From Escherichia phage JN02, in sequence record MT782071.1: a stretch of 64,000 bases of DNA. The stretch is one strand, 5' to 3'. This document shows, piece after piece, positions 11,125 through 50,778 of the stretch; positions within the stretch are counted from its first letter, which is position 1; every line of letters begins with the position of its first letter. The notes under the pieces are model-generated. The model did not search any database. It was not told the DNA's origin and saw nothing but the letters and a program-made list of their open reading frames with translations. The translations under genes were made by a program, and so were the position numbers.

Positions 11125-11201
<77 letters not shown>

Positions 11202-11207
11202 AATATA

Positions 11208-11281
11208 TGACCCAGACCAGATTCGAACTGGTAACCTTTCCCTTATGAGGGGACTGCTGCTAACCATTGAGCTACAGGGCC
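11208..11281 (-). tRNA. tRNA with CAT anticodon (Met, or lysidine-modified Ile2-type)
   Basis: T-arm accag-TTCGAAT-ctggt, anticodon loop CTCATAA, acceptor with one wobble and one mismatch, D-arm imperfect; 6 nt from tRNA-Arg (dimeric precursor arrangement). Confidence 0.6.
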
Positions 11282-43648: not shown

Positions 43649-45217
43649 ATGACTACTATCAAAACTAAAGCTCAGCTCGTAGACAAATGGAAAGAACTGC
43701 TGGAAGGTGAAGGCCTGCCGGAAATCGCTAATAGCAAGCAGGCTATTATCGCTAAAATCTTCGAAAACCAGGAAAAAGATTTCGAAGTATCCCCTGAATA
43801 TAAAGACGAGAAAATCGCTCAGGCATTTGGTTCTTTCTTGACCGAAGCTGAAATTGGTGGTGACCACGGTTATAATGCTCAGAACATCGCAGCAGGTCAA
43901 ACCTCTGGTGCAGTAACCCAAATTGGGCCAGCAGTTATGGGTATGGTTCGTCGTGCTATTCCTAATCTGATCGCTTTTGATATTTGTGGTGTTCAGCCTA
44001 TGAACAGCCCTACCGGTCAGGTATTTGCTCTCCGTGCAGTATATGGTAAAGACCCTATCGCTGCTGGCGCTAAAGAAGCTTTCCATCCGATGTATGCCCC
44101 AGACGCGATGTTCTCTGGTCAGGGTGCTGCTAAGAAATTCCCAGCTCTGGCTGCTGACACTACTACTGTTGTAGGTGATATCTATACTCACTTCTTCCAA
44201 GAAACTGGTACTGTATATCTGCAAGCTTCTGCTGTAGTAACACTTGATTCTGGTGCAACTGATGCAGCTAAATTAGATGCCGAAGTTAAGAAACACATGG
44301 AAGCTGGTGCACTGGTAGAAATCGCTGAAGGTATGGCTACTTCTATCGCTGAACTTCAGGAAGGCTTCAATGGTTCTACCGACAACCCGTGGAACGAAAT
44401 GGGCTTCCGTATCGACAAACAAGTTATTGAAGCTAAATCTCGCCAGCTGAAAGCTGCTTACTCCATCGAATTGGCACAAGACCTCCGTGCAGTACACGGT
44501 ATGGATGCTGATGCTGAACTGAGCGGTATTCTTGCTACTGAAATTATGCTAGAAATCAACCGTGAAGTTGTTGATTGGATTAACTACTCGGCACAGGTTG
44601 GTAAATCTGGTATGACCCTGACTCCGGGTTCTAAAGCTGGCGTATTTGACTTCCAGGACCCGATTGATATCCGTGGTGCTCGTTGGGCCGGTGAAAGCTT
44701 TAAATCTCTGTTGTTCCAGATTGATAAAGAAGCAGTTGAAATTGCTCGTCAAACCGGTCGTGGTGAAGGTAACTTCATTATCGCTTCCCGTAACGTAGTT
44801 AACGTACTGGCTTCAGTTGACACTGGTATTTCTTACGCTGCACAGGGTCTGGCTTCTGGTTTTAATACCGACACTACTAAGTCTGTATTTGCCGGTGTAC
44901 TTGGTGGTAAATACCGCGTATACATCGACCAGTATGCTAAACAGGATTACTTCACCGTTGGTTACAAAGGCGCTAACGAAATGGATGCAGGTATTTACTA
45001 TGCTCCTTACGTTGCACTTACCCCACTGCGTGGTTCCGATCCTAAGAACTTCCAGCCGGTAATGGGCTTTAAAACTCGTTACGGTATCGGTGTTAACCCG
45101 TTTGCTGAAAGTTCCCTGCAGGCTCCAGGTGCTCGCATCCAGTCCGGTATGCCGTCTATCCTGAACAGCCTTGGTAAGAACGCTTACTTCCGCCGTGTAT
45201 ATGTAAAAGGCATCTAA
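43649..45217 (+). CDS. 23: Major capsid protein gp23
   Basis: 522 aa; MTTIKTKAQLVDKWKELLEGEGLPEIANS... as in T4 gp23. Confidence 0.95.
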   Translation: MTTIKTKAQLVDKWKELLEGEGLPEIANSKQAIIAKIFENQEKDFEVSPEYKDEKIAQAFGSFLTEAEIGGDHGYNAQNIAAGQTSGAVTQIGPAVMGMVRRAIPNLIAFDICGVQPMNSPTGQVFALRAVYGKDPIAAGAKEAFHPMYAPDAMFSGQGAAKKFPALAADTTTVVGDIYTHFFQETGTVYLQASAVVTLDSGATDAAKLDAEVKKHMEAGALVEIAEGMATSIAELQEGFNGSTDNPWNEMGFRIDKQVIEAKSRQLKAAYSIELAQDLRAVHGMDADAELSGILATEIMLEINREVVDWINYSAQVGKSGMTLTPGSKAGVFDFQDPIDIRGARWAGESFKSLLFQIDKEAVEIARQTGRGEGNFIIASRNVVNVLASVDTGISYAAQGLASGFNTDTTKSVFAGVLGGKYRVYIDQYAKQDYFTVGYKGANEMDAGIYYAPYVALTPLRGSDPKNFQPVMGFKTRYGIGVNPFAESSLQAPGARIQSGMPSILNSLGKNAYFRRVYVKGI

Positions 45218-45241
45218 TCTTAATTGATTAAATCTTATTTT

Positions 45242-45266
45242 GGGAGACTTCGGTCTCCCTTTTTTG
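45242..45266 (+). terminator. Rho-independent terminator after gene 23 (gggagac-UUCG-gtctccc, T6)
   Basis: Perfect stem, UUCG tetraloop, T-tract. Confidence 0.75.
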
Positions 45267-45269
45267 GTT

Positions 45270-45539
45270 TTATTTCTGTGCAATTTCGATGTAAGTTTTC
45301 AAAATATTTTGCCAATTAGGCATACCTTCTTGGACATATGCCGGAGAGCCGTCTTTGTTTTTGAATGACGCAAGTTTATCAGTGGCCCAATAACCTTTAG
45401 CTCGAGCTTCAGAATCAACTTTCATCCATACTTTGTTGAAGGCATTACCATTAACTTTTGCACCATATTTTTCTACTAACTTAACTGCTTCAGCTTCTAG
45501 AACTTTTAAAGTATCTCGTAAGAAACGTGCTTTAGTCAT
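45270..45539 (-). CDS. Hypothetical protein, 89 aa, between genes 23 and 24
   Basis: ORF in track; strong AGGAG Shine-Dalgarno and own early promoter. Confidence 0.5.
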   Translation of the reverse strand: MTKARFLRDTLKVLEAEAVKLVEKYGAKVNGNAFNKVWMKVDSEARAKGYWATDKLASFKNKDGSPAYVQEGMPNWQNILKTYIEIAQK

Positions 45540-45569
45540 TTTGTTTACTCCTCTGTAGTTGATAAGTCT

Positions 45570-45599
45570 ATAGTATCACATACCAAATACGTTGTAAAC
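45570..45599 (-). promoter_or_regulatory. Early promoter cassette (-35 GTTTAC, -10 TACTAT)
   Basis: About 40 nt identical to the cassette at 9278-9320. Confidence 0.5.
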
Positions 45600-45605
45600 A
45601 ATCTT

Positions 45606-45613
45606 TATAAATA
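45606..45613 (+). promoter_or_regulatory. Late promoter TATAAATA (gene 24)
   Basis: Exact octamer 28 nt upstream of gp24 ATG. Confidence 0.6.
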
Positions 45614-45640
45614 ATCTATATCACATAAGGAAAAAATGCA

Positions 45641-46960: not shown

Positions 46961-47968
46961 TTATGATACTAATTCAATCCATGCAGGACGCAGAACATCT
47001 TGCACCATTCGGACTAATTCTTTCTTAACAAGATTCGGATTATCAGATGATGTTAATACAATACCTTCACGAGAAGTTTCTTCCAGAATATCTTGAACAG
47101 TCAATCCCATCACTTTACCAAAATCTTTTGGCGTTACAGTCCCAATCTTAGAAATCACATTATTAACACGATTTAATGTAACATAACAAGCTAGAACATC
47201 AAGCAGGTTTTTGTCAATTTCGGTTAATGGAACCTGAGTTTTAACAGGCTTATCAGACTTTTTCTTTTCACTGAATTTAGAGTTCTTGCACTTAATAGCT
47301 ACACGAGTACCGTTTGACAGCCATTTAGGGAAACAGGGCTTCAGAACATAACCTTCTGCTGTATTATCGCCAATAACATTAGCATCAAATACACAATTAT
47401 TTGCTTCTACAAGGTCTTCTGATGCAGTAGAATTATAAGCGGCTAAGACAGAATCAAGGTCATTTGGAATCATGATAAGAGAATCAAATGTTCCACGACC
47501 AAGCATTGGTGCCATTTTAAAACCAAACGTATTACAGAAATCTTGCATTTCGTAATCACTCATATAATAAGTATCATCACTTTCCGTGTTTATGATGATA
47601 TCGAACACATAAAAATCTTTTTCACCGTAGTCAACACCTTTCTGGATTCCACCACCAGCGAATTCACCAAAGACTTGATATGACACCGGCACTGAAGTTG
47701 AAATACTTTCCATGACTTCTTGAACGGCTTTAATAGCTTTATCATACTTCTTAAGTACGATTTCATAACCATAAAAATCTTCTGCTGGAAGAATAGGGCC
47801 TGTGCGCTTGGCGCATGTGACGTTGTCACGTTCAATTATTAACGAGAAGTTGGTCCCATGGATTTTCTCACGTGCTACCCAAACACCGGTAGTCAAACCA
47901 TTAGTGTAGAGTTTTTCAATAAACTTAGAGTTGTAGTGGTTTTCAAGACTGCTGTATTTCTTAAACAT
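46961..47968 (-). CDS. rnlB: RNA ligase 2
   Basis: [20 protein letters not shown]... matches T4 Rnl2 N-terminus; 335 aa. Confidence 0.9.
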
Positions 47969-48631: not shown

Positions 48632-50050
48632 TTATGGATATGTATAGATGATACCAGTTTCTAAAGCAGTTTTATGGATGACGTATCCATTACGTGATTC
48701 TTGAACATCAACTTCCGGATAGTCTTTCATCATCTTCTGAAGTGTGTAACGATGCAAGTAGTACTTACTATCTGGATCTTCAGTTTTCCAATCTTTACCT
48801 TCTTCAGTCATTTTTTGGATTTCATCCATAACCCACCATCCGCACCAGATGTAAGCTGAAGTACGATGTGGAAGAGGATGAACATAAGGTAGTTCACCTT
48901 CTGGTTCTGGAGCAACTTTATCGGTTACCTGAACTTGACCTTCTGCTGTAATAGTTTTGCTATCGTAATCAGTTGCAGTAATAGTTGCAGTAACTTCAAT
49001 AGTTTGACTTCCAATAGATGAGGTATCAACAGTATATACATTAGTTGACCCTTCTACAGGAGAAGAATCTTTCTTCCACGAGTAAGTAATTTGTGCTGCG
49101 TCAGGTGCGCCAGTAACATTAGCAGTAAATGTAGCCGAAGCATCTTGTTGAACATTAATAGAAGGAGGAGTCAATGTAATCTGTGGATTCATTGTCTTCT
49201 TATTAACCGTTAATGATACTTCATTCGAAGTAACTTCCTTTGCATCATAATCTGTCGCTGTTACTTGGGCTACACACTTAATTTTTTTAACTCCACTTGT
49301 AGTTGGAGTATAGCTAAATGTAGAGTTAGTTTCTCCACCAACCTGTGAATCATCTACATACCACTGATACGTAGCAGACGCTCCAACCGGTTGAGAAGCT
49401 AAGGCAGCAGTAAATTGAACTTGGGTTCCAATTACTCCGGCCGAAGGACTATTGGGAGTTACTGCCAACGTAGTTGTCTGTGTCTTTTTATTAACAGTCA
49501 GTGACACTTCATTAGAAGTAACGCTTAGTGCATCATAATCTGCCGCAGTTACTTGAGCTACACACTTGATTTTTTTAACTCCGCTTGTAGAAGGAGTGTA
49601 ATTGAATGTAGCGGAAGTTGCTTCGCCAACAGGAGAATCATCTACATACCATTGATAAGTAGCGTTTGCGCCTGATGGCTGCGAAGCTAAAGCGGCAGTA
49701 AATTGAACTTGGGTTCCAATTACTCCAGCGTCAGGGCTATTAGGAGTTACAGCTAAGGTAGTCGTTTGTGTCTTGTTTTGAACTGTGATAGTTGTAGAAG
49801 CTTCTGCTGTTTCAGCTTCAGCTTCCGGAACTGTATTTGTTGCAACTACTTTAATAGTCTTTTGACCTGCAGGTCCTTTTAGTACATAACTAAAAGTTGC
49901 TTCAGCTCCATCTTGTGGAACATCATCTACAGTCCAAGCATATGTAATAGTTCCACCTCCAGTTTCACCACTGGGAGTAGCAGTAAACTGCTTAGTCTCA
50001 TCTATAACTCCAGTAGGTGTTTTAGGAGTTATATCAACTGTAAAAGCCAT
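48632..50050 (-). CDS. hoc: Highly immunogenic outer capsid protein Hoc with expanded Ig-like repeats
   Basis: 472 aa; tandem Ig-like domains; position between 24.x and inh as in T4. Confidence 0.85.
   Translation of the reverse strand: MAFTVDITPKTPTGVIDETKQFTATPSGETGGGTITYAWTVDDVPQDGAEATFSYVLKGPAGQKTIKVVATNTVPEAEAETAEASTTITVQNKTQTTTLAVTPNSPDAGVIGTQVQFTAALASQPSGANATYQWYVDDSPVGEATSATFNYTPSTSGVKKIKCVAQVTAADYDALSVTSNEVSLTVNKKTQTTTLAVTPNSPSAGVIGTQVQFTAALASQPVGASATYQWYVDDSQVGGETNSTFSYTPTTSGVKKIKCVAQVTATDYDAKEVTSNEVSLTVNKKTMNPQITLTPPSINVQQDASATFTANVTGAPDAAQITYSWKKDSSPVEGSTNVYTVDTSSIGSQTIEVTATITATDYDSKTITAEGQVQVTDKVAPEPEGELPYVHPLPHRTSAYIWCGWWVMDEIQKMTEEGKDWKTEDPDSKYYLHRYTLQKMMKDYPEVDVQESRNGYVIHKTALETGIIYTYP
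49202..49777 (-). repeat. Tandem duplication (2 x about 288 bp) of one Ig-like domain inside hoc
   Basis: Two consecutive 96-aa units nearly identical at protein and nucleotide level. Confidence 0.8.
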
Positions 50051-50059
50051 AAGTTATCC

Positions 50060-50728
50060 TTATTTTAATGTTACGAAAGAAGAATTACGAGTTTCACGAA
50101 TTAGAACTGATCCATCGCGATTAATATAATAAATTAAGCTAAATAATGTTTGGTGAGCAGAAGCATGCACAAAACTAGTTGGGCGAGATTTCCAATCTGG
50201 GGTTTCGGCTATCCATTGATAAATCCACCAAGGAACAGTAACATATCCTGGGCCTTTGCCTAATTTAATGAGTGTAGGACTAAAATTTTCAGGCAGAACA
50301 AATTTTACTTCTTTATTTACCTCTGCCTCAGGCTCTTTTTCAGATTCAACAACCTGAGTAATTGCTTCTTCGAATTTATCATGGTCGAATTCTTTTTCTT
50401 GTTCGACAACTTCTAATACTTCAACTTGTTCTGTTGGAGAATCAAACAACAGAATAGCTTCTTCTTTAACTTCTTCGTTGGTGAAATTAACACCGTCTAC
50501 ATCATCTGCGGCAGTAATTAAATCAGTGATAGATAATCCATCAGTTTCAGGTAATGGTTCATCAGCCAGTGCGTTAAGAGCTTCTTCGATATCAATAACA
50601 ATATTATCGAATGATTTTGATTTCTTAACACTAATGCCAAATTGTTCCGCATATTCAAACAGTTTAGCTTTGGCTTCCTTTTTATCAGAAAGAGCACGTA
50701 ACTCTTCAATATAGTCTTTATCGATCAT
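50060..50728 (-). CDS. inh: Inhibitor of prohead protease (Inh)-like protein
   Basis: 222 aa acidic protein downstream of hoc. Confidence 0.7.
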   Translation of the reverse strand: MIDKDYIEELRALSDKKEAKAKLFEYAEQFGISVKKSKSFDNIVIDIEEALNALADEPLPETDGLSITDLITAADDVDGVNFTNEEVKEEAILLFDSPTEQVEVLEVVEQEKEFDHDKFEEAITQVVESEKEPEAEVNKEVKFVLPENFSPTLIKLGKGPGYVTVPWWIYQWIAETPDWKSRPTSFVHASAHQTLFSLIYYINRDGSVLIRETRNSSFVTLK

Positions 50729-50741
50729 GATATTTCCTCAT

Positions 50742-50749
50742 TATAAATA
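50742..50749 (+). promoter_or_regulatory. Late promoter TATAAATA (uvsW)
   Basis: Exact octamer upstream of uvsW. Confidence 0.55.
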
Positions 50750-50778
50750 TAATTATATTTATTACATGGTAATTTGAC

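Follow-up and report, generated by a model that had tools for sequence, protein, structure and literature searches.

The stretch of DNA analysed here (the window) covers 64,000 nucleotides of Escherichia phage JN02 (MT782071.1). Over region 38000-62000 it shares 98-99% identity with T-even phages of the Mosigvirus type, among them NHEP10, Ec3-ASingh, JS09 and moskry, and it belongs itself to a phage of this type. It contains an intact hoc gene, together with gene 23 for the major capsid protein (Table 1). Hoc proteins of the T4 type are present in 155 copies per capsid. Hoc is a phage surface molecule that has been implicated in mucus adherence and is also a display scaffold of T4-based vaccines. 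The hoc ORF matched T4 Hoc among the PDB sequences (5vf3_Z, E=9e-236) and the PHROG family 1149, 'Hoc-like head decoration' (E=1.6e-141), and the gene order rnlB (46961-47968), 24.2, 24.3, hoc, inh (50060-50728) and uvsW, which places hoc in the late head-gene cluster, is the same as in T4. Two homing endonuclease genes of T4 are missing from the surroundings, namely segD, which in T4 is located between genes 23 and 24 (gap at 45218-45640), and segE, which in T4 lies between inh and uvsW (gap at 50729-50778); neither gap has room for such a gene. For the late-promoter motif of T4, TATAAATA, 19 occurrences were counted in the window, where 7.7 ± 2.5 are expected, mostly on the plus strand and upstream of structural genes. 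Just upstream of hoc or inh, the minus strand contains no exact copy of it. Adjacent genes for tRNA-Arg(TCT) and tRNA-Met(CAT) were also detected at 11125-11281 of the window, on the minus strand.

Table 1. Features of the hoc locus and of the gene for its docking partner (positions in the window).
Feature	Position	Strand	Remarks
hoc, coding for a head decoration (outer capsid) protein of 472 aa, highly immunogenic	48632..50050	-	intact ORF
Ig-like domain 1 (D1), aa 1-95	49766..50050	-	84/95 aa shared with domain 1 of T4 Hoc; AF2 beta-sandwich, pLDDT about 90
Unit alpha, aa 96-191, extra Ig-like/PKD domain	49478..49765	-	Pfam PKD match at aa 99-158; promoter-proximal
Unit beta, aa 192-287, orthologous to Ig-like domain 2 of T4 Hoc	49190..49477	-	promoter-distal
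Ortholog of T4 Hoc domain 3 (D3), aa 288-376	48923..49189	-	75/89 aa identical to T4 residues 192-280; Pfam Ig_3 and I-set at aa 289-373
C-terminal capsid-binding domain, aa 377-472	48635..48922	-	92/96 aa identical to T4 Hoc 281-376
Converted tract in alpha, gene nt 325-356	49695..49726	-	32-nt run identical to 49407-49438
Converted tract in beta, gene nt 613-644	49407..49438	-	32-nt run identical to 49695-49726
Putative terminator-like GC hairpin and T-run, just 3' of the hoc stop codon	48610..48627	-	consensus scan, sequence
Gene 23, major capsid protein, Hoc docking partner	43649..45217	+	95% aa identity to T4 gp23

The hoc gene carries two in-frame 288-nt units, alpha and beta, which are arranged head to tail on the minus strand. 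TRF located the array at 49193-49774, inside the 472-aa ORF (period 288, 2.0 copies, 80% matches, 0% indels, score 763), and a second repeat search paired 49193-49480 with 49481-49768 at 80%. The tandem repeat is thus found where the original prediction had placed it, and it is the sole long-period tandem repeat in the 64-kb window. A much smaller repeat (12 nt, 2.3 copies, 48965-48993) is located in the domain 3 ortholog, where it encodes T-A-T-I-T-A-T-D; the equivalent spot is annotated as repeat_region in moskry and mobillu. Alpha and beta are identical at 229 of 288 nt (79.5%) and at 82 of 96 residues. When alpha was compared with all other 288-nt segments of the window, 74.5 ± 8.3 matches were obtained, with a maximum of 114, and the likeness of the two units is therefore far beyond chance. 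At the protein level they share 85% identity, against 28-40% for any other pair of Hoc Ig domains, as had been anticipated. The predicted length of T4 Hoc, 376 aa, was also confirmed, and it differs from that of the window Hoc by exactly one 96-aa unit. These results support the view that the gene is hoc and that the additional 96 aa relative to T4 are an Ig-like (PKD-type) domain which arose by tandem duplication of domain 2, in agreement with the Ig-like nature and tandem origin proposed earlier.

The units had further been described as nearly identical, in protein and in DNA, apart from a handful of positions. This description does not hold: 14 residues out of 96 are different, and so are 59 nt out of 288. 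The identical sites number 85, 85 and 59 of 96 at codon positions 1, 2 and 3, respectively, so that 37 of 96 third positions differ, and the longest run shared by alpha and beta is 32 nt. Such divergence also bears on the concern that the array might be an assembly artefact, produced by expansion of a single domain or by the joining of reads that stem from a mixture of phages. Assembly errors are often caused by repeats, although nothing specific points to one here, and there is a likely sequencing error within the repeat of the close relative NHEP10. However, with copies that are 20% diverged and share no identical run above 32 nt, short reads resolve the array trivially; the ORF is intact, and the identical 472-aa layout recurs in at least 29 clusters of 90% identity and in numerous isolates obtained independently in Denmark, India, Germany and other places. 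An artefact is hardly conceivable under these circumstances. As regards NHEP10, each window unit contains an A7 run encoding Lys-Lys (49282-49288, gene nt 763-769, in beta, and 49570-49576). In NHEP10 (PQ511148.1, locus 601-2020), which is the closest relative with an annotation, A8 stands for the window A7 in beta, and hoc is split into two overlapping CDSs. This A8 is probably a homopolymer sequencing error, while slippage at the run is conceivable.

In order to know which copy is the additional one, each unit was compared with its counterparts in other phages. Beta shares 91% of its nucleotides and 93% of its residues with domain 2 of T4 Hoc, and 96% and 98%, respectively, with the only unit in the 376-aa Hoc of JS09. 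For alpha, the nucleotide identity is 92-94% with unit 1 of moskry, Ec3 and F31, compared with 80% with its neighbour beta and 82% with T4 domain 2. More generally, each copy shares 91-98% identity with the unit in the same position in other phages of Mosigvirus and Tequatrovirus, and 74-82% with the opposite copy. On these sequence comparisons, including the alignment with the T4 Hoc domains suggested in the original prediction, beta can be assigned as the ortholog of T4 domain 2 and alpha as the extra unit.

A tree was built from 27 units of 14 genes containing one, two or three units, from Mosigvirus, Tequatrovirus and metagenomic contigs. It consisted of two clades, one with all first-position units and the other with all the rest, at a bootstrap support of 200/200 (199/200 with third positions alone). 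The alpha and beta classes are split by 27-31 diagnostic sites; the window alpha bears the alpha state at 25 of 27 of these and the window beta the beta state at 26 of 27. By the Nei-Gojobori method, alpha and beta of the window are separated by a dS of 0.83 (dN/dS 0.14). The corresponding dS values between the window and T4 are 0.27 for beta and domain 2 (dN/dS 0.20) and 0.30-0.37 for the flanking domains. The alpha-beta dS is therefore about three times that between the window hoc and T4 hoc (0.27-0.37), a ratio which gives the age approximately since a dS of 0.8 is near saturation. Because the alpha and beta clades are recovered in 200/200 replicates across Mosigvirus and Tequatrovirus, the duplication must be older than the divergence of the phages compared and is not recent.

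The original prediction had favoured a recent, lineage-specific tandem duplication, with near-identical copies and a copy number that may be unstable or mis-assembled. The much greater likeness of the two units than of other Hoc Ig domains is in line with it, and so is the fact that their protein identity (0.854) is the highest within-gene value among the 30 two-unit proteins compared. Against it stand the nucleotide identity of 79.5%, the dS of 0.83 with only 59 of 96 third positions conserved, the closeness of each unit to its positional counterparts in other genera, the 200/200 split of the tree by position and the occurrence of the same architecture in about a third of the related records. 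A recent event is thus refuted by synonymous divergence and unit phylogeny, and we consider it extremely improbable.

Both copies have been maintained under purifying selection, as judged from the low dN/dS between them and from values of 0.07-0.30 between unit orthologs. Positive selection was considered and rejected, all pairwise dN/dS being at or below 0.30. Of the population-variable residues, 8/17 fall in predicted strands, against a strand background of 58%, and a loop enrichment is not clear. As the variation is concentrated at a few positions, the array was also considered as the target of a diversity-generating retroelement; this candidate was discarded, as a third copy of the unit is absent from the 64-kb window and the differences are mainly synonymous (dN/dS 0.14). 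In all comparisons with close relatives (loci L001 and L026-L029), alpha was the part of hoc that had diverged most. The identities between the window and Ec3, for instance, are 98.6% for D1, 92.0% for alpha, 96.2% for beta and 98.1% for D3.

The distribution of hoc forms was then established. The best 120 protein matches, which are representatives of 90%-identity clusters, comprise 80 Hocs of 376 aa, 29 of 472 aa, 8 of about 568 aa and 3 of odd length (468, 377 and 567 aa). Among 116 Hoc cluster representatives, with A and B standing for alpha and beta, the architectures are B (52), A-like (26), AB (24, and 4 more with an ambiguous first unit), ABB (7) and BB (1), and the order alpha then beta is nearly universal. 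An even-step sample of 60 out of 656 matching phage records contained the 1419-bp gene 19 times and the 1131-bp gene 33 times. The two-unit gene is found both in Mosigvirus (moskry, F31, mobillu) and in Tequatrovirus (teqskov), and the GenBank record of moskry already lists the repeat as a repeat_region. JS09 has a one-unit gene although its hoc flanks are 98-99% identical to those of the window, which indicates that the presence of alpha is polymorphic even between phages with nearly the same hoc flanks. An exact-sequence look-up of the window Hoc in a collection of 15 billion sequences gave no match, and in the literature searched neither the duplication of domain 2 nor the distinction between alpha and beta was found to be explicitly described. 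The window hoc is nevertheless ordinary, as it adds a further allele to a four-Ig class that is common and present in public records.

The units also bear traces of recombination. Within a 32-nt tract (Table 1), the window alpha has beta-type bases at unit nt 54, 58 and 61, where other alphas differ. Moreover, both window units contain a private C56A change (Pro to Gln, 'GTQVQF') that is present in 0/25 of the other units compared, and absent from the closest relatives NHEP10, Ec3, F31 and moskry. As the tract combines beta-type bases in alpha with a private change shared by both units, it bears the signature of a short gene conversion in the window lineage. Small patches of the opposite class are seen in other phages as well. 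Domain 2 of T4 Hoc (NC_000866), for example, is of the beta class, but at six diagnostic sites next to each other (unit nt 238-243, the 'ALS' patch) its bases are those of alpha, which suggests a past exchange with an alpha unit. A reciprocal beta patch was observed at the same place in the alpha unit of L003.

Single-unit genes gave a related picture. Those of L004, L044, L041 and JK38 show one switch from alpha (5') to beta (3'), at four different positions, and those of L042, L043 and PNJ-6 are more complex mosaics with beta at the 3' end. The single units of JS09 and L040 are pure beta. L006, which is of alpha type nearly to its 3' end, is the sole exception among the single-unit genes that contain alpha sequence, of which 7/8 have a beta-type 3' end at the DNA level. 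Neither a pure alpha unit nor a clean chimera with a beta 5' part and an alpha 3' part was seen among the single-unit genes examined. This small DNA-level sample comprises about 25 mutually related genes, and the orientation bias of the chimeras is an apparent one. The chimeric units are consistent with, though not proof of, repeated collapse of alpha-beta arrays by unequal crossing-over. The recombination hotspot announced in the original prediction can thus be retained in an evolutionary sense, from one short conversion tract in the window and chimeric single units elsewhere, but not as the site of a high-frequency event.

At each of the junctions D1/alpha, alpha/beta and beta/D3, the preceding Ig-like domain ends with AAGACA (Lys-Thr), and this motif is plausibly the site of the original out-of-register exchange. 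The microhomology could equally have served another route, by which alpha and beta diverged as alleles of domain 2 in separate phages and were joined by an out-of-register crossover at AAGACA during co-infection. T-even phages recombine freely, and mostly alpha-type single-unit genes do exist (L006, L041, JK38, PNJ-6). Such a fusion fits less well with the predominance of beta 3' ends (7/8) and the four single switches among the alpha-containing single units, which look like the footprint of array collapse, with the lack of pure alpha units and of clean beta-5'/alpha-3' chimeras among those seen, and with the nearly universal alpha-then-beta order. Fusion and in-situ duplication followed by divergence are not cleanly separable, but fusion is disfavoured and in our opinion unlikely.

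The consequences for the protein were examined with an AF2 model built from 30 homologs, which contains four beta-sandwich domains with a pLDDT of about 88-96; the C-terminal domain of the model is unusable (pLDDT below 50), so that its membership assignment rests on sequence. A Foldseek search of the PDB gave as best matches the four-Ig strings of Sidekick, ICAM-5 and Dscam (E about 1e-12). Their global TM-scores are 0.2-0.3 because the inter-domain angles differ, and these matches were taken only as evidence of a string of Ig folds. Pfam matches of Hoc to PKD, Ig_3, Ig_2 and I-set were all above the cut-offs.

In T4, Hoc is a monomer at the centre of the gp23* hexamer, forming a fibre of ~180 Angstrom with three Ig domains (PMC10385173). 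The residues of T4 Hoc that contact gp23 or are conserved are Y293, H295, H299, R300, Y304, W306, W309, W310, D313, Q354, ESRNG 355-359 and Y360 (PMC10385173). All of them (16/16) are unchanged in the window Hoc, at positions shifted by +96 relative to T4, and the Hoc-binding loop of gp23 (T4 residues 326-344, GSKAGVFDFQDPIDIRGAR) is identical to that of T4. The window therefore encodes a full-length, intact Hoc whose docking domain and docking site are unchanged, and which possesses one extra Ig-like domain under purifying selection. By analogy with T4, one Hoc monomer would be docked per gp23* hexamer through the C-terminal domain. Its most likely function is that of a longer, four-Ig capsid fibre anchored by this unchanged domain; the additional domain would lengthen the T4-type ~180-Angstrom fibre by about one Ig domain, i.e. 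roughly 40-50 Angstrom.

Besides length, the extra domain would bring more negative charge and a second domain-2 surface. Hoc is an acidic protein with a pI of about 4-5 (PMC10385173); the window Hoc has a pI of 4.57 and a net charge of -21 at pH 7, compared with -14 for T4 Hoc. The putative second surface includes an S-L-T motif, which is kept in both units (residues 183-185 in alpha and 279-281 in beta). Hoc binds fucosylated glycans (PMC9271167), and in PNJ-9 residues S183/L184/T185 of Hoc domain 2 are needed for the binding of fucosylated MUC2 (PMC11853027). The motif is, on the other hand, also conserved in phages which differ in adhesion (PMC13390416). Single-residue variants of Hoc alter glycan binding and mucus retention (PMC9271167, PMC13390416). 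It is therefore plausible, as the original prediction proposed, that the extra domain changes adhesion or immunogenicity.

The extra domain could instead be a functionally neutral spacer, that is, a tolerated length polymorphism of a non-essential protein. Hoc is dispensable in the laboratory (PMC9958956), and forms with one, two and three units coexist in one genus with almost identical flanks. Yet both units are under purifying selection (dN/dS 0.14 between them and 0.07-0.30 between orthologs), they remain intact across genera despite a recombination route to their loss, and small changes in Hoc shift mucus adhesion in published experiments (PMC11853027, PMC13390416, PMC9271167). A neutral spacer is thus quite unlikely.

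Taken together, these features are probably best explained by an old tandem duplication of domain 2, which would have given rise to two diverged classes of units in a recombining array and to a longer capsid fibre. In this history, the endpoints of the duplication would lie in the short AAGACA motif found at the end of Ig-like domains 1 to 3. The copies would then have diverged into the promoter-proximal alpha and the promoter-distal beta, both under purifying selection. The array is polymorphic in Tequatrovirus and Mosigvirus, occurring as beta, alpha-beta, alpha-beta-beta and single chimeric units, and homologous recombination between units and between co-infecting phages would occasionally collapse, expand or patch it. 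Re-analysis of the locus thus replaces a fresh event by an old duplication, which is sufficiently stable for assembly and owes its polymorphism to recombination. A more speculative version, which we regard as possible rather than probable, is that the alpha-beta array is the older state of hoc in Tequatrovirus and Mosigvirus. Many 376-aa Hocs, perhaps including that of T4 with the six-site alpha-type patch in its domain 2, would then be independent collapses by unequal crossing-over. Selection of a diversifying or frequency-dependent kind, exerted on the capsid surface by mucosal glycans or antibodies, would keep alpha and beta together, with ongoing gene conversion. If this were true, the textbook three-Ig Hoc would be a derived form in many phages. 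The natural four-Ig alleles offer comparison material for studying how fibre length or domain valency relates to mucin binding, aggregation and antigenicity.

Among the closest known systems is T4 Hoc (376 aa; PDB 5VF3, 8T1X, 8T9R), which is encoded at the same gene position. Its protein identity to the window Hoc is 88% in domain 1, 93% between domain 2 and beta, 84% in domain 3 and 96% in the C-terminal domain, and its capsid-contact residues and gp23 docking loop are the same. The window Hoc differs from it by the extra 96-aa Ig-like unit alpha between domains 1 and 2 and by its more acidic character (-21 versus -14). The 472-aa Hocs of other T-even phages, among them moskry, F31, mobillu, teqskov, NHEP10 and Ec3-ASingh, have the same D1-alpha-beta-D3-C layout and 93-97.5% nucleotide identity over the whole gene, but do not have the Pro to Gln change that is copied into both units of the window. 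The 568-570-aa Hocs of UGKSEcP1, UGKSEcP2 and metagenomic contigs have the same flanks and also begin with alpha, but their alpha-beta-beta array brings the number of Ig-like domains to five. In four of the 568-aa loci (L030-L033, UGKSEcP1 and metagenomic or assembly contigs), the two beta-class units come from different beta sub-clades. In a distant T4-like lineage, domain 3 is duplicated instead. The Hocs of the IMG/VR contigs L007 and L008 (471-472 aa), compared with L009 (377 aa), carry this duplication, with a Hoc identity of about 48%; the expansion arose independently and in parallel. Variation by whole domains is also known from other Hoc homologs, in which 1 to 10 Ig domains are borne on a conserved C-terminal anchor, as in Serratia phage Muldoon (PMC10385173), and the Hoc of the T4-like phage PNJ-9 is without one domain (PMC11853027). 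The window Hoc shares this organization of a C-terminal anchor with a variable Ig string, but its change is a single step, whose origin in domain 2 and relative age can be traced.
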